From assembly GCA_041665345.1 (NCBI GenBank), contig JBAYJA010000003.1:103202-167201 (forward strand): a stretch of 64,000 nucleotides of DNA, given 5' to 3'. The translations under genes and the position numbers were made by a program. This DNA comes from Patescibacteria group bacterium (GTDB taxonomy: Bacteria > Patescibacteriota > Patescibacteriia > PEXW01). The notes beneath the pieces were generated by a model, which had not been told where the DNA came from, ran no database searches, and was given only the letters and a program-made list of their open reading frames with translations. Below, one piece after another: positions 8,988 to 60,135 of this stretch; the stretch's first letter is position 1; the number at the start of each line of letters is the position of its first letter.

Positions 8988-10301
8988 TTATTCGTGCCAC
9001 CCCTTCTCTTCCATGGTGTGCTTCAGGTCGCGTATCCGCTGCTCATCTTCATTGATGATTCGGTTAATGCTGTCAGCAAGTTTTTGAAAAGGCCCACCCG
9101 CTTTTACTGCAAGACGACGGTTTTCCCCAGTTTCTATGGACACTTCATGTACATTCTTTAGCTCGTCTTGCAACTCTGCAAACGGGTGGCTGATGGTTTT
9201 TCGGAAAATAAGGAAGAAAGCGAAGAGGAAGACTTGCGTGAGGAGGATATAGAAAACCGCAAATCCAACAGCGCGTGCTTGCAGTCCAGCAGCAGCAATA
9301 TCGGTTGTGGAGCCATCAAGGAAAAGCCGCAGCACGCCCAGCGTTCCTTGGCCCGAGTTGACGTGGAGGGGCATGGTTACAATCATGGCACTACCCAGAC
9401 TTTTTTCAGACTCTGGGAGGGAATTGCTGGTAGGCACATAGCGAACTGTACCAATACTCTTCAAACCTTGGGCTATATCCTCATCAATTGTCGTACGTGT
9501 ATTGACCCGATCAGCAACATCGGAACCAATGATCAAGCCGTCCGGGAGAATCACGTACACACGTTTTGTTGTCGCGGTCGTAAATTGTTCAACGAAGTTG
9601 GTAATTTCCTTTTGCCCTTCCTCGCTCTTTGGAATGAATGCCTTGGCAGTCAGGTGCATTTCTGATTGGCGGGCAATGAATTCTTGGAATACTTTGGTTT
9701 GGTTCTCAATGACAATGCTCTCCGTCCGGCCGTTCATTTGCCCAACGAACGTAGCGCCCACGACTAAGGTGGCAACGCTGCAAATGATGAAGAGTGCTTC
9801 CATCCCTGCGCCCGGGTACTGTGAGCGGGCGCGAGCGGCGCCAAAAGCCAGGCAGAGAATAGCCGCCACGCCAGTTGCACCTCGGGCAATGACCCCTCCC
9901 ACCCCCAGCGGCTGGAAAGCGGAGACAATTTGCAAGCAGAAAACCAGTGCGACAAACCCCAGGACATATGGCAGGGCGGCCGTGAGACGAGCCAAGTGCG
10001 GGTGTGCCCGAAGCTTCTTCAGCCACAGCCAGGCACTGGTGATGCAGACGAGGTTCAGGCCAAGGAGTCCAACACTCACCCACTGGACGGAGGGTTGGCT
10101 GGCAATGTTTCGCTCCACCAGCCAGATGGTGACAATGCTGGTTTGTGCGATTACCGTATTGAACACCAGGATTCGGAGCGGGCGTACAATTCTGCTCTCC
10201 GTGTACCGCCGTTGCATGAAGTACAGGAAGAAGAACGCGATGGTATTTGCAGCCAAGGCGATGCCGACGAAACCGTCTATGAGAATAGTTGGTGTGGTCA
10301 T
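8988..10301 (-). CDS. Membrane signalling protein: N-terminal multi-TM region, extracytoplasmic sensor-like domain, TM, HAMP domain; no kinase or other output domain
   Basis: Hydrophobic segments; HAMP-like AELQDELKNVHEVSIETGENRRLAVKAGGPFQKLADSINRII; the protein ends about 25 aa after the HAMP. Confidence 0.55.
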   Translation of the reverse strand: MTTPTILIDGFVGIALAANTIAFFFLYFMQRRYTESRIVRPLRILVFNTVIAQTSIVTIWLVERNIASQPSVQWVSVGLLGLNLVCITSAWLWLKKLRAHPHLARLTAALPYVLGFVALVFCLQIVSAFQPLGVGGVIARGATGVAAILCLAFGAARARSQYPGAGMEALFIICSVATLVVGATFVGQMNGRTESIVIENQTKVFQEFIARQSEMHLTAKAFIPKSEEGQKEITNFVEQFTTATTKRVYVILPDGLIIGSDVADRVNTRTTIDEDIAQGLKSIGTVRYVPTSNSLPESEKSLGSAMIVTMPLHVNSGQGTLGVLRLFLDGSTTDIAAAGLQARAVGFAVFYILLTQVFLFAFFLIFRKTISHPFAELQDELKNVHEVSIETGENRRLAVKAGGPFQKLADSINRIINEDEQRIRDLKHTMEEKGWHE

Positions 10302-55421: not shown

Positions 55422-55910
55422 ATGGTTTCTATCCGACTTAGCCGCACTGGCAAAAAGAATCACGCGACCTTCCGCTTTATCGTGTCTGATAAGCAGCGGG
55501 ACACGGTTGCGCCTGCTTTGGAAATCTTGGGCTGGTACGATCCACATACGAATCCTGGCACCATTGAAGTGAAAGCTGACCGGGTGCAGTACTGGCTGAG
55601 CAAAGGCGCCCAAGCTTCCCCCAGCGCGCACAATCTTTTGGTTACGGCCGGGGTTATCAAGGCTGACAAAGTTGTGGTCGCCAAAGCCAAGAAGAAGGAC
55701 GAACCCAAGGTTGAGGAAAAACCTGCAGCAGCCCCAAAGGCCGAAGCCCCCAAAGCCGAGGAGAAAAAGGAAGAAGCTCCGGCAAATGCAGAAGAGCCAA
55801 AGATTGAAGTACCCAAGGCTGAAGTAAAACCTGAAGAAAAGAAGGAAGAGGCTCCAGCTACTGAAGCACCGAAGGCGGAGGAGAAGAAAGCGGAAGAAAC
55901 GAAGAACTAG
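55422..55910 (+). CDS. rpsP: 30S ribosomal protein S16 with a Lys/Ala/Pro/Glu-rich C-terminal extension
   Basis: MVSIRLSRTGKKNHATFRFIVSDKQRDTVAPALEILGWYDP; terminator agagccgagaggctct-ttttct. Confidence 0.9.
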   Translation: MVSIRLSRTGKKNHATFRFIVSDKQRDTVAPALEILGWYDPHTNPGTIEVKADRVQYWLSKGAQASPSAHNLLVTAGVIKADKVVVAKAKKKDEPKVEEKPAAAPKAEAPKAEEKKEEAPANAEEPKIEVPKAEVKPEEKKEEAPATEAPKAEEKKAEETKN

Positions 55911-55958
55911 GAACCTAGAACGTAGAACAGAGAACCAGAGAGCCGAGAGGCTCTTTTT

Positions 55959-56043
55959 CTGTCATCCTGAGTCCCGTCGCGGGGCGAAGGATCTCCGAAG
56001 GTTGTACATTCTCAGGAGATCCTTCGAAGACTCAGGATGACAG
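55959..56043. repeat. Palindromic element, copy 1 (about 27-nt inverted arms GTCATCCTGAGTCTTCGAAGGATCTCC around a TTGTACATT-containing loop; the left arm carries a 12-nt insertion)
   Basis: ctgtcatcctgagtc[ccgtcgcggggc]gaaggatctccgaaggttgtacattctcaggagatccttcgaagactcaggatgacag. Confidence 0.8.
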
Positions 56044-56121
56044 AGGAGGATTTGACACCCCTCACCCCCAGACGTAAGCTGGGTGGAATGCACATTGAAA
56101 ACCCATTAGGAGGATCAGAAT

Positions 56122-56550
56122 ATGGCGAAGAAACAAGTTCGAAACATGAGAACCGTTTTGACTGCAGCCCAAGCTCGAAAAGCATCAAAACGTGGGCGGC
56201 AGATTGCGACCGTTGCACAAGAAAAGAAGCAGACTGAAGCGCAAGCAAATTGGGCCAAACATATTCTACAAGGCAAGAAGCTTGCCCCGGCGTACTTTTT
56301 GGAGACCGTGCAGCCCCAAATTGCAGCAGCGACCGCTCGGGGTCAGCATGCAGTTTCCATTACCGTGCACAACAATCAGGGAGAAAACTACAACCTCAGT
56401 CCTCTCCTGAGTGGTTTAGTGTCTGGTCTCCTCAAAAAGTTGAAAGGCTTGGGATACACAGCGACATCAAAGTCAAAGTATAACAAGACATTCGGTAGCG
56501 ATGACCCGTACGGTAACGCGACCTACTTCACCCTGGAAATTTCCTGGTAA
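56122..56550 (+). CDS. Hypothetical protein (142 aa)
   Basis: SD taggagg; TTGACA-like box at 56052 just after the palindromic element. Confidence 0.45.
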   Translation: MAKKQVRNMRTVLTAAQARKASKRGRQIATVAQEKKQTEAQANWAKHILQGKKLAPAYFLETVQPQIAAATARGQHAVSITVHNNQGENYNLSPLLSGLVSGLLKKLKGLGYTATSKSKYNKTFGSDDPYGNATYFTLEISW

Positions 56551-56597
56551 CGAACCTTTCCACCCTACTTTGCTGGGCAGAGCAAGAACTATAATCC

Positions 56598-56641
56598 CTA
56601 AACCATAGCCGACGGTAGACAACCTAGGTACTGGAGAAAAA
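56598..56641 (+). promoter_or_regulatory. Conserved 5' leader CTAAACCATAGCCGA(C/T)GG...CCTAGG...ACTGGAG(G)A, copy 1 of 3 (others 57358..57404 and 58148..58192), each preceded by a TATAAT-like -10
   Basis: Three-way alignment upstream of the paralogs P1-P3. Confidence 0.65.
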
Positions 56642-57238
56642 ATGGACAATGCACATCTCGACGCTTTCTTAAAACATCTGCAAGCCAAGCGTTTGCTCCT
56701 TCGAGTAAAAGAATATCAGGGTTCACCGCCTCACTTGCCGCGTCGCAAGATTTGGCTACTGACTTCGGTTAGTCCCGAGAAAACATCTCATACCAAGCCT
56801 CTCATTCAGGTAGTGTTTTCAGAATTCGTTACTGATGTAGTTAAGCCAATAATGACACTTGACGTGACATTAGGCACCATTTTGGATTTTGGTAAGACAA
56901 AGCAACATGGTGAGTTTTTTGACCAGATTTGGTCAGAATGGTCCCGAAACAACTTGTTGGGTCGTAATGTTACCCAAGAAGCAATACAGGTACGGCTTAT
57001 GCAAAATCCTGGACGGTCGGATTTCTCCTACCAATGCCCCGAGACGCTCTCGCTGTACTCGATTCAGCTTATGCTCTCATTTGGATCTTTACGAGCACTG
57101 CTTGTTCGTGAGATTGAGGGCGGATGGGGAGAGAGAGAAGTTGCACTCTCAGTGCTTTTCAAGCGATTCGATGGTTTTCTCAAAGAGTTGCAAAGTAATT
57201 GGAATACGGTTACCACGCAGCTCAAAATGATAGTCTAA
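56642..57238 (+). CDS. Fast-evolving cassette paralog P1 (198 aa), unknown function
   Basis: Shares with P2/P3 the N-terminal helix + (I/L)(I/L)VR motif and a C-terminal L..F.GF...I..G block; own terminator gacagtcctgcccgactgtc-ttttttt. Confidence 0.55.
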   Translation: MDNAHLDAFLKHLQAKRLLLRVKEYQGSPPHLPRRKIWLLTSVSPEKTSHTKPLIQVVFSEFVTDVVKPIMTLDVTLGTILDFGKTKQHGEFFDQIWSEWSRNNLLGRNVTQEAIQVRLMQNPGRSDFSYQCPETLSLYSIQLMLSFGSLRALLVREIEGGWGEREVALSVLFKRFDGFLKELQSNWNTVTTQLKMIV

Positions 57239-57404
57239 TATTACCAGACAGTCCTGCCCGACTGTCTTTTTTTTGACAAAAATATTCCCAAGGTGTTAAA
57301 TGAGTATTCGTACATTTACAATTCTCATAGGGCAATTTGGGAATATTTGATTTCACCCCTAAACCATAGCCGATGGCCCGTGCGCCTAGGCGATTGGAGG
57401 AATC

Positions 57405-57995
57405 ATGTCCACACCACAAGAAGATCCTAAGCTGCAAAAGCAGCTCGCATCAAGTTCACTTCTCGAGCTGGCGTCGACTAAAATTGTTGTTCGAACGCAC
57501 ACGGATGTTGAGTACCAGGATGCCGCATCTTTCGCTGCATGTAGAGAAGATCGCGCATTCTTTACAACTGAAGTTGTCTGCTTCGCAACTGCATTTACCG
57601 GAAAACCCGGCCTGCTTACCCGCGCAAGCATGGTTCTTGAAAGTAGATGTCATCCCGACCTTGCAAGTCGCATTGGCCTCCGCGTGTATGACCAGAGGAA
57701 AAGTGAAGATGTAGAGGAGCTTCGGGCCTACCTTGAAGATTGGATAGTACGTCGGCCAATTTGGTTGGAACCCTTGGCATCAGTCCATAGCCAGGCCAGC
57801 AATATTGTCCCAACGCACGTTCCTGTCGATGGCCGTTCAGTGCACCACTTACTCTGCTATGCAGCCATTGAAACTCGGCTACGTGCTATTCTTAGCCAAG
57901 ATGCCGCAATAGCATTGTCCTCTCGTTTCAGTGGGTTCTTTGATGCGAGAATCCAAGAATTACAGAGAAGCGGTCGTTACCTGCGGAATAGCTAG
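57405..57995 (+). CDS. Cassette paralog P2 (196 aa)
   Basis: Same promoter/leader/terminator architecture; terminator ggacagtcaatatcggctgtcc-tttttt. Confidence 0.55.
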   Translation: MSTPQEDPKLQKQLASSSLLELASTKIVVRTHTDVEYQDAASFAACREDRAFFTTEVVCFATAFTGKPGLLTRASMVLESRCHPDLASRIGLRVYDQRKSEDVEELRAYLEDWIVRRPIWLEPLASVHSQASNIVPTHVPVDGRSVHHLLCYAAIETRLRAILSQDAAIALSSRFSGFFDARIQELQRSGRYLRNS

Positions 57996-58192
57996 ATCTT
58001 TTCTCGTCGTTCACGAACGGCACGAAATAGAGGACAGTCAATATCGGCTGTCCTTTTTTATTTGACATGCTGCTACAAGCAGCGTTAGAGTAAGGCATTC
58101 GTTCATTCACAATCTTCTTAGGGCAGTTTGAAGATATTATAATCAATCTTAAACCATAGCCGACGGTAGAAACCTAGGCGACTGGAGGAAAT

Positions 58193-58729
58193 GTGACTAA
58201 AGAAAAAGATGCGTTGCTAGCCTTAGCACGCAAACAGATTATCGTCAGGTTTGCGATCACGTTGCATGAGAAGGAAATTCGGGGTGACCTCATTGTTTTT
58301 ACGGTCGTTCATTCCAAGGCAATACTCATCTACAAACGCTACAATCAGATGGGTCACACTTGGGAGCACAGTATTGATCAGGGCATGAGCACCTTTGATC
58401 TCAACATAGAACAGCGGCGCTCCGCATTTTGGAGTAATCTTGAGGGATTATCGAAGGCGTATACTTGTATTGATGCGTATTTTCCTGCGGAGCAGTTTGT
58501 TGGTCGGTTTACGACAGTGGATGCTAGTGGATGTGCGTGTTCGCCGTCAAGTCCATTTTTCCTGATGTGCTGCGCCTCGTTGTTCACTGAAATCGGCTTA
58601 GCAGCGTATCCAGAAACGTACATGAGCCGGGAAGAGCGTCATACTTTGCAAGATCGTCTCTCAAGTTTTATAGCCGATTACGTGAATCGAATTCGTCAAA
58701 CTGGATCGGCAATCTTTGTGAAGCAGTAG
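58193..58729 (+). CDS. Cassette paralog P3 (178 aa)
   Basis: GTG start after ctggagg; terminator ggacaggtctgcccacctgtcc-ttttttt. Confidence 0.55.
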   Translation: MTKEKDALLALARKQIIVRFAITLHEKEIRGDLIVFTVVHSKAILIYKRYNQMGHTWEHSIDQGMSTFDLNIEQRRSAFWSNLEGLSKAYTCIDAYFPAEQFVGRFTTVDASGCACSPSSPFFLMCCASLFTEIGLAAYPETYMSREERHTLQDRLSSFIADYVNRIRQTGSAIFVKQ

Positions 58730-58808
58730 GGGAATTTTTTAAGGACAGGTCTGCCCACCTGTCCTTTTTTTCGTACAAAAAAGGCGCTCCACACGGAACG
58801 CCAGCATG

Positions 58809-58988
58809 TTACTCACCTTGGTTTGCGGACTTTTTGATGATCCTCAGGCAAATCAACCAGGTGGCAATGATTGCGCCTACGCTTGACCAGACTACTGTTG
58901 TGTCCCAACTAGCTAGATAAGCCCCTAGAAAAAACAAGCATCCAAGGCATATGGAAATGTAGAGCATGCTTCTCTTACTTTTTTGCAT
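58809..58988 (-). CDS. Small membrane protein (59 aa), not in the ORF track (<60 aa)
   Basis: SD aggagaaaaa + ATG; MQKSKRSMLYISICLGCLFFLGAYLASWDTTVVWSSVGAIIATWLICLRIIKKSANQGE. Confidence 0.45.
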   Translation of the reverse strand: MQKSKRSMLYISICLGCLFFLGAYLASWDTTVVWSSVGAIIATWLICLRIIKKSANQGE

Positions 58989-59165
58989 TTTTTCTCCTCG
59001 TGAGCAGTGTTCATGGAATTTTGATTCACGCTAACATGTGAGAAGCGTATCGTCAATCCTACTAAAATAACGAATGGTTGCAGAAATACTCGGTATTAAA
59101 ATCGGCCTCATTTCCCAGAAAAAACTGACGGAAAAATTATTTTCCGTCAGGGGGGTTGCTGCCAC

Positions 59166-59396
59166 TTAGGCAAAAACGAGCATATCATCAACGAGCACTT
59201 CAATGGCTAATTCCTCGTTGCCAGTCAAATCAAGAACGAGTGAAGCAAAGTTTGCGTGCTCCCCGCCTATGGCCTTCATGATTGCGTGTTTCGCGGCTCG
59301 TTCCGCCAGGATGAGTCGGGCGTTTTCTTCTGGGTCAGTGGATCGCTGTTTTTCCGGGATCGTGCCCCGGCCGAAGCAGAGTGGGCAAGTATGCAT
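59166..59396 (-). CDS. Hypothetical small CxxC protein (76 aa)
   Basis: MHTCPLCFGRG...; terminator-like palindrome 59470..59510 further downstream, separated by about 0.1 kb. Confidence 0.35.
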   Translation of the reverse strand: MHTCPLCFGRGTIPEKQRSTDPEENARLILAERAAKHAIMKAIGGEHANFASLVLDLTGNEELAIEVLVDDMLVFA

Positions 59397-59772
59397 TTTT
59401 TCTCCAGTTCGTAAGTTTTTTGGTTTCGCATCAAGCCTATTCCTAAGGCTACCTGCGTGTCAAGGAGTGGTTTGGTCGATGAATAAAAAGACACTCTCCA
59501 GGGAGTGACCATGTTCGTTTCTCGTTTATTTCCCAATACCCACTACCCCCCTACGCTCAGAAGCTCCGGCGGGCGGGCAGCTCTACCCCTCGATTCGTCT
59601 GACTCACTCGGGGCTCCGACCAAAGCGTCGGAGCAGCTTTATACCTCTATACCTTCTTCTTTTGACACCCTCCCCTACCTCTGCTATTTTTTTAGCACAG
59701 CGATACCGGTCCTGAAGAGTCGCAGGATACACGGTTCCTGGCAGTCCTTTCCCCAGTTTAACCAACGCCGAT

Positions 59773-60135
59773 ATGGCCGAAGAGCAGTTTGAAGACGCGC
59801 AGTTTGTGGAGTTTGTGGTGAAGTCCATTGTGGACAACCCACAGGAAGTAAAGGTAGAACGCATTGTGGATGAAATGGGTGTGCTGTGCACGTTGCATGT
59901 GAACCCAGCAGACCTGGGTCAGGTCATTGGCCGCCAGGGGCAGACTGCCAAGAGCATTCGCACCTTGCTGCGGGTGGTGGGCGCCAAGAACCATGCCCGG
60001 GTGAACATGAAGATCTACGAACCCGAAGGCTACCGCAAGCACAAAGGGGAAATGGGTGGGAAGCGGATGGATGACCAACCCGCAGCCCCTGCTGCCGCGC
60101 CAAGTGAAGACCTGGCCGACGACCTGAAACTCTAA
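59773..60135 (+). CDS. khpA: KH-domain RNA-binding protein KhpA (UPF0109/YlqC) with an acidic/Pro-rich C-tail
   Basis: FVEFVVKSIVDNPQEVKVERIVDEMGVLCTLHVNPADLGQVIGRQGQTAKSIRTLLRVV. Confidence 0.8.
   Translation: MAEEQFEDAQFVEFVVKSIVDNPQEVKVERIVDEMGVLCTLHVNPADLGQVIGRQGQTAKSIRTLLRVVGAKNHARVNMKIYEPEGYRKHKGEMGGKRMDDQPAAPAAAPSEDLADDLKL

Follow-up and report, generated by a model that had tools for sequence, protein, structure and literature searches.

The 64,000-nucleotide stretch of DNA analysed here (the window, to whose full length all coordinates refer), from a Patescibacteria group bacterium, carries a tandem array of three open reading frames (ORFs), P1, P2 and P3, all on the + strand. P1 (56642-57238) encodes 198 amino acids (aa) from an ATG at 56642, P2 (57405-57995) encodes 196 aa from an ATG at 57405, and P3 (58193-58729) encodes 178 aa from a GTG at 58193. 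A first-pass annotation of this DNA had reported three ORFs of 178-198 aa at these places, with flanks far better conserved than the coding sequence, and both observations are correct. P1, P2 and P3 are separate transcription units, each consisting of a leader, an ORF and a terminator; each leader contains a nearly invariant RNA hairpin, termed H1, which overlaps the Shine-Dalgarno sequence (SD) and recurs in other Patescibacteria upstream of members of a single protein family.

Within the window, the 17-mer TAAACCATAGCCGAYGG occurs exactly three times, once 5' of each ORF (56599, 57360 and 58150), where 0.17 copies would be expected from shuffled sequence and none of 100 shuffles reached three; the leader core was not found elsewhere in the 64 kb. 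Relatives were retrieved by an exact-pattern scan with the leader pattern AACCATAGCCGAYGG-N(4-14)-CCTAGG, and the related loci fetched for comparison are given here as L-numbers (L001 is GCA_964493065.1). In a collection of one genome per GTDB species the pattern was found at 13 loci, 10 of them in Patescibacteria (Saccharibacteria, WWE3 and unclassified); metagenome contigs supplied 19 further loci, and viral contigs gave no match. The pattern was followed by YRAYTGGAGGA and a start codon in all cases except two kinds of chance match, namely a sequence common to three gammaproteobacterial metagenome-assembled genomes (MAGs; L006, L009 and L016) and the sequence at L033, which have neither an SD nor a family ORF. 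All true matches, from GTDB genomes and metagenomes alike, precede a family gene of 168-225 aa, and the full core AACCATAGCCGAYGG-N-CCTAGG-YRAYTGGAGGA was seen 5' of a gene of this kind at some 25 different loci in Patescibacteria; the ORF 3' of the leader is always 168-206 aa long, apart from one of 225 aa in the second cassette of L021.

A covariance model of H1 (R1) was searched in the window and in 169 kb of related loci. In the window it recovered only the three leaders (P1, 47.2 bits, E 1.6e-12; P2, 58.8 bits, E 3.3e-16; P3, 63 bits, E 1.5e-17), with the next match at E 0.13, and in the related loci it recovered only copies that were already known. The match at E 0.13, at 59395-59427 on the - strand, was rejected as a fourth leader; it shares only AAACCA and the common CUGGAGAAAAAAUG ribosome-binding site (RBS) context, and it belongs to a 76-aa minus-strand ORF described below. 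When the whole window was compared with Rfam 15 (4227 models) at the gathering threshold, only five tRNAs were found; in region 55900-59500, with E values up to 10, there were four weak unrelated matches, none of them on a leader. The first-pass annotation had named as its own alternative that the leader is a promoter context common to unrelated genes, and this fails because in the window the covariance model recognises the three leaders and nothing else. What precedes these ORFs is not a generic promoter or RBS context; it is very probably a structured cis-acting RNA specific to this family, and its conservation is broader and older than had been proposed.

RNAalifold, applied to 12 leaders, predicts H1 as an irregular hairpin of 31-38 nt, in which two identical internal loops (UA/GAY) separate three short stems; the consensus reads CCA-UA-GCC-GAY-GG(N)-loop-(N')CC-UA-GGC-RAY-UGG, followed by AGGA and the start codon. 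A structural descriptor scan located the + strand copies of the array at 56603..56634 (P1; CCA UA GCC GAC GG-uagacaa-CC UA GGU AC UGG), 57364..57397 (P2; CCA UA GCC GAU GG-cccgugcg-CC UA GGC GAU UGG) and 58154..58185 (P3; CCA UA GCC GAC GG-uagaaa-CC UA GGC GAC UGG). P1 and P3 are C-type, with C as the pyrimidine Y, and P2 is U-type. The full leader consensus given in the first-pass annotation fits P1 and P3 and does not fit P2, which differs in the terminal loop of H1. The UGG of the 3' arm is the 5' end of UGGAGGA, which contains the SD (GGAGA at 56633-56637 for P1, GGAGGA at 57396-57401 for P2 and GGAGGA at 58184-58189 for P3, all +), and the start codon follows 7-9 nt after the arm; H1 is, in this respect, the structured SD-overlapping element by which an autogenous translational operator is recognised.

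Pairing within H1 was evaluated on 24 distinct hairpins. In these, 97.7% of cells are paired and both sides change in four of the nine pairs; none of 500 shuffles reached any of the five pairing measures, and pairing fell to at most 48% in a control in which the 3' partner was slid. Since the search pattern fixed the outer two stems of most copies, the case for covariation is carried by the innermost pair, N:N', which was free in the pattern (CG 8, UA 8, GC 2, UG 2, AU 1), and by the second hairpin copies that lie 12-17 nt upstream in L017, L019/L030 and L020. In the upstream copies GCC:GGC is replaced by GUC:GAC, GGU:GCC or GCG:CGC, and CCA:UGG by CUA:UAG, with the UA and GAU loops unchanged; these three copies, together with L021b and L031b, were found independently of the exact pattern. 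For isolated H1 the consensus fold is the minimum-energy structure in four of five cases (-8 to -13 kcal/mol), and it is so for the isolated hairpins of P1, P2 (-11.4 kcal/mol) and P3 (z -2.3); such modest predicted stability would be in keeping with a regulated element. As the first-pass annotation had thought possible, the three genes share a cis-regulatory RNA in their leaders, and its covariation is real.

Read 5' to 3', the two strands of H1 spell nearly the same word, CC(A)-UA-GSC-GAY-(U)GG, and the hairpin therefore has a dyad through its middle stem and two equivalent asymmetric loops (UA opposite GAY/RAY). The pyrimidine Y is identical in both loops of every hairpin (T/T 16, C/C 8, mixed 0; hypergeometric p 1.4e-6, before allowing for relatedness), and the second Y was left unconstrained by the search pattern. 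Because this covariation is in the same sense, it is not a matter of base pairing. C- and U-types both occur in Saccharibacteria and in the window clade, and neighbouring cassettes often differ in type; along the arrays the order is C, U, C in the window, C, U in L021 and U, C in L031. One kind of reader contacting both loops, with a specificity that differed from cassette to cassette, would be expected to give paired Y. The C:G-closed GAY/UA loop has the sequence signature that marks a loop E half-motif in bacterial 5S rRNA, where a sheared G.A stands next to a reverse-Hoogsteen A.U, and GCCGAUGG is identical to a strand of Escherichia coli 5S loop E; we treat the likeness as a lead on the geometry of H1.

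The leader is longer than the 45 nt first assigned to it. A TATAAT box had been proposed as its promoter element; the box is present before P1 (56590-56595) and P3 (58138-58143), is absent before P2 and in orthologous leaders, and sits inside a longer leader, between H1 and a second, upstream hairpin, H0, with better promoters further upstream. A probable P2 promoter lies at 57273..57301 (+; TTGACA at 57273-57278, 17 nt, TTAAAT at 57296-57301) and abuts the T-run of T1, the terminator of P1; a probable P3 promoter lies at 58062..58091 (+; TTGACA, 18 nt, TAGAGT; 10 of 12 matches in the promoter scan). Since these better promoters directly follow the previous terminator, the leader extends over about 95 nt and includes H0. 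Saccharibacteria loci likewise have a TTGACA-17-TAnnnT promoter 5' of H0. No obvious TTGACA promoter was found between P1 and the stop codon of the 142-aa ORF directly 5' of it (56122-56550, +), and since P1 follows this stop codon, the two may be co-transcribed.

H0 was located, on the + strand, at 56570..56585 for P1 (UUGCU-GGGCAG-AGCAA, just after the stop codon of the 142-aa ORF), at 57322..57343 for P2 (UUCUCA-uagGGCAAuu-UGGGAA, with a loop one base off GGGCAG) and at 58113..58134 for P3 (UCUUC-uuaGGGCAGuuu-GAAGA). For seven leaders of the window clade, RNAalifold predicted the two hairpins H0 and H1 and no further conserved pairing; six of the pairs in H0 are compensatory. At the other end of each unit, also on the + strand, stands a terminator: T1 at 57246..57274 (stem-loop 57246-57267, AGACAGUC-CUGCCC-GACUGUCU, loop 57254-57259), T2 at 58029..58061 (stem-loop 58029-58056, GGACAGUC-AAUAUC-GGCUGUCC, a loop other than CUGCCC) and T3 at 58741..58773 (stem-loop 58741-58766, GGACAGGU-CUGCCC-ACCUGUCC, loop 58751-58756), each followed by a T-run. 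All three qualify as intrinsic terminators and have in common the GACAG..CTGTC stem design that the first-pass annotation had described.

In P1 and P3 the GGGCAG loop of H0 is complementary to the CUGCCC loop of the unit's own terminator. The same combination was found in L007, L021a, L021b, the WWE3 loci (L014, L022 and L027), L017 and L020, and it is thus kept in at least five lineages (the window clade, L007, WWE3, L017 and L020) with different stems: the terminator arms are GACAGUC / GACUGUC in the window clade, GCUCGCUG / CAGCGAGC in WWE3, AAUACCC / GGGUAUU in L017 and CUCCACCA / UGGUGGAG in L020. Cassettes without GGGCAG in H0 have no CUGCCC terminator loop. A generic terminator design was considered and ruled out, hairpins with a CUGCCC loop and a T-run occurring in the window only at T1 and T3. 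P2, with GGGCAA in H0 and AAUAUC in T2, looks like a decayed pair. We read GGGCAG/CUGCCC as a possible kissing contact of 6 bp that would join the 5' and 3' ends of a single mRNA; an inverted repeat acting at the DNA level is the less likely reading, since the interval does not include the promoter.

The proteins are far less alike than their leaders. Pairwise comparisons of P1, P2 and P3 were not significant, either by BLASTP (E 0.39, 0.15 and 13) or by hhalign (P 0.05-0.14), and a MAFFT alignment of the three alone was unreliable. A word-indexed search of 5.8 billion proteins returned, besides the queries themselves, only P0003 (the 84% ortholog of P2) and a 99% copy of P3, and an exhaustive phmmer search with P1 against 1.84 billion representatives added one homolog, P0005, at 33% identity. 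The database proteins identical to the queries belong to a Patescibacteria MAG, being labelled 'Patescibacteria group bacterium' with locus tags WCV85_05550 and 05555. An external family hidden Markov model was then built from 19 outside proteins of 168-225 aa, with no window sequences in training, and scored against 1283 six-frame ORFs of at least 80 aa from the window and the fetched loci. Among ORFs outside the training set, P1 (45 bits, E 8e-13), P3 (19.4 bits, E 5e-5) and P2 (13 bits, E 4e-3) scored highest; hhalign against the external profile aligned all three over their full length, with a Prob of 98% and P 1.6e-12 over 180 columns for P1, 71% and 4.6e-6 over 172 columns for P2, and 62% and 1e-5 over 167 columns for P3. 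As pairwise comparison is not significant, the paralogy asserted by the first-pass annotation is visible only via the family profile, through which it is borne out; judged by that profile, P1, P2 and P3 are anciently diverged members of one Patescibacteria family.

The faint protein motifs noticed earlier are real. Across 23 aligned members only R21, the R of (L/I/V)(L/I/V)VR, is invariant, W100 and R175 (the R of R(F/L)xG(F/L)) are nearly so, and identity to P1 is 8-22%; the family signature consists of (L/I/V)(L/I/V)(V/I/L)R after an N-terminal helix and, at the C-terminal end, of R(F/L)xG(F/L). Ten family ORFs are present in the protein collection with the same start codons as chosen here, and those of the ten that bear a name are all annotated 'hypothetical protein'. 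No model of Pfam, PADLOC, PHROGs or NCBIfam matched more than one of the 23 members (best E 0.012), and the family profile found nothing among PDB sequences (the best match, a designed protein, had E 0.013). Neither a signal-peptide-like nor a transmembrane segment was seen in P1-P3 (highest 19-residue hydropathy 1.52), and the family proteins, of about 170-225 aa, are probably cytoplasmic.

With an alignment of five sequences, AlphaFold2 gave an unusable model of P1 (predicted local distance difference test, pLDDT, 42.5); with an 18-sequence family alignment the pLDDT rose to 73.5 (predicted template modelling score 0.73), and the model has the topology a1-b1-b2-b3-b4-a2-b5-a3-a4, a five-stranded sheet with long C-terminal helices. 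Structure prediction, which the first-pass annotation had proposed, yielded a model without a significant fold neighbour: the best match to P1 in PDB by Foldseek had E 0.012, and the best in BFVD had E 0.003 with a template modelling score below 0.3, neither being significant. Coat proteins of single-stranded RNA (ssRNA) phages recur among the weak, non-significant matches (PDB 6yfg and several BFVD entries, E 0.03-0.15), which is suggestive given the mechanism proposed below, yet is not evidence for it.

The array differs between close relatives. In L001, the same rpsP-khpA interval holds a single cassette, which is the ortholog of P2 (84% aa identity) and whose H0 resembles that of P1; L001 lacks window positions 56563-57360 (the body of the P1 cassette with the P2 promoter and H0) and 58063-59635 (the P3 cassette with two small minus-strand ORFs). 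One breakpoint, the first, coincides with base 1 of H1, and the other with the end of T2; this arrangement fits unequal crossing-over or deletion between repeated leaders. Self-comparison of the locus found only the leaders. Between the window and L021 the inter-cassette block of terminator, promoter and leader is 79% identical, and the ORFs beside it can hardly be aligned. Elsewhere, L021, L031 and the contig of P0005 have arrays of two or three genes; the last (JGI sample 3300075153, 2930 bp) has three same-strand genes of 189, 210 and 189 aa, separated by gaps of about 200 nt, of which the third is 33% identical to P1, and it is probably another three-cassette array. The contig of L001 and L004 (CAZBMC010000004.1, GCA_964493065.1) is syntenic with the window at 75-87% DNA identity, which suggests that its label 'uncultured Gammaproteobacteria bacterium' is a taxonomic mislabel of the MAG or contig.

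Genomic context varies by lineage; N-terminal sequences, the only ones used here, place secD/secF-like genes on one side and secE-nusG-rplK-like genes on the other in Saccharibacteria, and other housekeeping genes lie beside the cassette in other lineages. No conserved partner gene was found beside the cassettes, the contexts differing between lineages. Between the window and L001, the ratio of nonsynonymous to synonymous substitution rates (dN/dS) is 0.20 for P2, as against 0.028 for SMC, 0.073 for S16 and 0.052 for KhpA; in this one orthologous pair, the value for P2 is 3-7 times that of neighbouring housekeeping genes, and selection on P2, for the one pair, is relaxed but purifying, not diversifying. 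The first-pass annotation had called the paralogs rapidly diverged and hypervariable; in the sense of diversifying selection this finds no support, the paralogs belonging to an old, phylum-wide family, with the identities of 8-22% and the P2 ratio given above.

The array is flanked by rpsP (S16; 55422-55910) upstream and by khpA (59773-60135) downstream. The 142-aa ORF between rpsP and P1 has no Pfam match and no leader motif; in L001, the orthologous frame (9485-9910) is interrupted early by an in-frame TAA, and the only ORF called there is a C-terminal one of 87 aa. The gap between rpsP and the 142-aa ORF contains, at 55958-56044, an inverted repeat, TCTGTCATCCTGAGTC...GACTCAGGATGACAGA, which is long and perfect and encloses a second palindrome. 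In L001 (about 9275-9405) the ends of the repeat are kept (CTGTCATCCTGAG...TTCAGGATGACAG) and the interior is different, and a comparable long inverted repeat (GTCATTCCGACCGAAGCGGAGG...) lies just 5' of the first cassette of L021 (about 1625-1735, - strand); the repeat in the window could be an element like a miniature inverted-repeat transposable element (MITE) or a repetitive extragenic palindrome (REP), or a large RNA hairpin. Downstream of P3, the minus strand of 58783-59427 carries two small ORFs, each with a terminator-like hairpin (58802-58783 and 59150-59125): a hydrophobic one of 59 aa (58809-58988) and one of 76 aa with an N-terminal CxxC (59166-59396). The RBS context GGAGAAAAAATG is common to P1 and to both of these ORFs. 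An extended -35 element, TTGACACCC(C/T), was observed at 56052-56080 (before the 142-aa ORF), at 59664-59690 (before khpA) and before the cassettes of L010 and L021a, and may be a general promoter feature of the lineage.

P1-P3 are three complete expression units of one uncharacterised, fast-evolving family. Each would comprise a sigma-70-type promoter, a leader of about 95 nt with two hairpins (H0, with a variable stem and often a GGGCAG loop, and the nearly invariant H1), the ORF and an intrinsic terminator. We infer that H1 serves as a translational operator: alone, it would be marginally stable (-8 to -13 kcal/mol) and could be opened by ribosomes, and an effector of two-fold symmetry seated on both loops would lock the helix and block access of the 30S subunit. 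The effector would most readily be a homodimer of the cassette's own protein, giving autogenous repression. A kiss between the GGGCAG of H0 and the CUGCCC terminator loop of the same mRNA would then be likely to affect its stability or translation, and the array would grow and shrink by recombination between repeated leaders and terminators.

Confidence differs between these parts. It is likely that H1 acts on translation initiation. That the effector is the cassette's own protein is a tentative proposal, somewhat below an even chance; it is favoured because the RNA is exclusive to the family, because Y switches in both loops together, and because both types coexist in one genome. C and U types in one genome, often in adjacent cassettes, likewise speak for cassette-specific readers over a single host factor. 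The scheme as a whole, of self-contained units with H1 as operator and the own-protein dimer as effector, is the best overall explanation that we have, and we would put it only a little short of evens.

Several observations weigh against this scheme. The near-invariance of H1 is in part a matter of ascertainment, most copies having been retrieved by exact pattern, and the hairpin sequesters the first two G of the SD and no more. The promoters are matches to a consensus only. The family proteins have isoelectric points of 5.1-9.3, most of them 6-7 and so near neutral, and only three of their residues are invariant or nearly so, against an RNA that is constant phylum-wide; so variable a protein is an odd partner for so constant an RNA, and a host factor or a small ligand would fit better. 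The P1 model, despite its pLDDT of 73.5, has no significant structural neighbour. After permutation, no protein column was significantly tied to C/U type: the best was a Gln column (raw p 0.0018; 110 of 1000 label permutations were as good), two residues before strand b5 (about residue 113 of P1). All five members with Gln there are C-type and no U-type member has it, U-type members often having Glu at or next to the position; the column is a lead only for a specificity-determining residue.

Autogenous operators such as the coat/replicase hairpin of ssRNA phages, thrS with its dimeric ThrRS and the leaders of ribosomal proteins resemble H1 in placing a small hairpin at or over the RBS and in tying the RNA to one gene family, and the symmetry of H1 suggests a dimeric binder. 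Unlike the proteins of those systems, P1-P3 are neither ribosomal proteins nor synthetases nor coat proteins and have no significant fold match, and the RNA of H1, not its protein, is what is conserved phylum-wide. We know of no counterpart to the paired C/U switch or to the complementarity of 5' and 3' loops.

A conserved host factor and a small ligand are serious rivals to the own-protein effector. The first, which we judge unlikely, holds that H1 binds a host factor that sets the translation or decay of these mRNAs, candidates being dimeric RNase III, acting on the one-turn helix, and an RNA-binding protein, ribosomal or otherwise, able to recognise loop-E-like UA/GA modules. It would account for an RNA that is extremely conserved over deep lineages next to a protein that varies freely, for family proteins that are not basic and for the loop E-like sequence signature of the GAY/UA loop. 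As in 5S loop E, the H1 loop 5'-C GAY G-3' / 5'-C UA G-3' has the signature of the half-motif; H1 has two such modules in pseudo-two-fold arrangement with three Watson-Crick pairs between them, where loop E has non-canonical central pairs, its opposite strand differs, and it stands in an mRNA leader, the likeness being one of sequence. A host factor leaves unexplained the joint switch of Y, the coexistence of adjacent C and U types, and the restriction of the motif to one gene family.

Somewhat less probable again is that H1 is a small riboswitch with two symmetric pockets, whose ligand would close the helix over the SD; the unpaired Y would pair with a purine-like ligand, of G-type in C-type hairpins and of A-type in U-type ones, or the ligand would be a symmetric dinucleotide. 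Like an aptamer, H1 combines covarying stems with invariant loop nucleotides; its stability is marginal and its 3' arm runs into the SD; some leaders have tandem copies, as in tandem aptamers; and the always-double pyrimidine switch parallels the C74/U74 specificity switch of guanine and adenine riboswitches. Purine riboswitches (RF00167) are alike in that a single unpaired C/U separates two near-identical, coexisting classes, and in SD-based control; unlike their three-way junction with loop-loop contact, H1 has as its consensus fold one irregular hairpin containing a symmetric pair of internal loops, the genes 3' of it are not linked to purine metabolism, and neither RF00167 nor any other riboswitch model of Rfam matched at E up to 10. 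Riboswitch classes, moreover, normally control several ligand-linked families, whereas this RNA precedes one fast-evolving family without a recognisable enzymatic or transport domain, measures only 31-38 nt and, by RNAalifold, lies in a leader with no conserved pairing beyond H1 and H0. A more elaborate form, which we find more doubtful still, joins a two-pocket riboswitch (C/C and U/U hairpins taking different ligands) to an mRNA circle closed by the kiss of 5' loop and terminator loop; if true, adjacent paralogs would be wired to different signals, and we know of no bacterial mRNA with this architecture.

It is improbable that RNA and protein form a functional particle, in the manner of type III toxin-antitoxin systems or of a small defence ribonucleoprotein, with the hairpin cut from the leader and kept protein-bound and with arrays supplying several specificities. 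One RNA motif goes with one family of proteins about 180 aa long, the gene is preceded at some loci by one or two hairpin repeats, the units stand alone in varying contexts and are present or absent between close relatives, and dN/dS is raised relative to neighbours. ToxIN, CptIN and TenpIN similarly place an RNA directly 5' of an exclusive gene of about 170-200 aa in stand-alone, patchy units. Unlike ToxIN-like systems, the present leaders have one or two hairpins, not arrays of 34-36-nt direct repeats, and no terminator intervenes between RNA and ORF; the usually single hairpin over the SD points to translational control. No ToxN/AbiQ-type or other toxin domain and no PADLOC match was found among the 23 members, and no Kid/MazF-like fold is among the top matches listed.

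Least probable is that the flanks act as DNA (integron- or MITE-like, with GGGCAG...CTGCCC as inverted repeats) or mark immunity or anti-defence cassettes under diversifying selection. Presence and absence between relatives, breakpoints at the start of H1 and the end of T2, unrelated housekeeping contexts, the 79% identical intergenic blocks beside barely alignable ORFs, and inverted 6-mers at both ends of the unit are what a DNA-level element would leave; yet the spacing in H1 is asymmetric (2 against 3 nt per loop), its two-fold symmetry exists only in the folded single strand, compensatory changes keep the pairing, its place with respect to SD and start codon does not vary, the GGGCAG...CTGCCC interval does not include the promoter, and the leader pattern has no match in viral contigs. 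For the same reason of spacing, the half-sites differing internally, H1 was rejected as a palindromic operator in duplex DNA. Nor are these integron cassettes: P2 and P3 have promoter-like sites of their own, all three units have their own intrinsic terminator, and the conserved element sits 5' of the ORF over the SD, unlike integron attC. The genes on either side of the L001 cassette include no integrase or transposase, no systematic search of the window having been made, and region 55900-59400 has no long repeat pair besides leaders and terminators that would point to a diversity-generating retroelement, no search for a reverse transcriptase having been made. The role in immunity, anti-defence or surface variation put forward by the first-pass annotation finds no support, in view of a dN/dS of 0.20 and of the lack of any match to defence families or to PADLOC, PHROGs, Pfam and NCBIfam models, of signal peptides or transmembrane segments, and of a conserved partner gene.

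The loop-loop complementarity recalls icaR of Staphylococcus aureus, the fold-back of hok and the kissing of 3' cap-independent translation elements with 5' untranslated regions in plant viruses, where the two ends of one RNA are likewise complementary; unlike in these, the pairing proposed here would be between a 6-nt loop of a 5' hairpin and the loop of an intrinsic terminator, and the SD is not involved. To our knowledge, no bacterial case of kissing between a 5' loop and a terminator loop has been described, and a full-text literature search found none in bacterial mRNA; nor did full-text literature and Rfam searches find a cis-regulatory RNA class described for Patescibacteria. Leader RNAs that overlap the SD are of a known kind, and this one is a new class with unusual properties.

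The phylum-wide leader, the two-fold symmetry with its paired C/U switch and the complementarity of 5' and terminator loops all go beyond what the first-pass annotation had described. They make an unusual trio of loop-E-like modules related by a dyad, an always-double C/U switch and a 5' loop complementary to its own terminator loop. The case also illustrates that conserved flanks around a divergent ORF can mean an ultra-constrained RNA, not diversifying selection on the protein. A new protein family is defined here, without sequence or structural relatives, for which the leader offers a handle on function and the covariance model a probe to find further members. Patescibacteria make up a large share of bacterial diversity, and their gene regulation is almost uncharted; H1, about 35 nt long and shared by lineages from Saccharibacteria to WWE3, is a compact RNA element that can readily be tested, and its candidate partner is encoded alongside.

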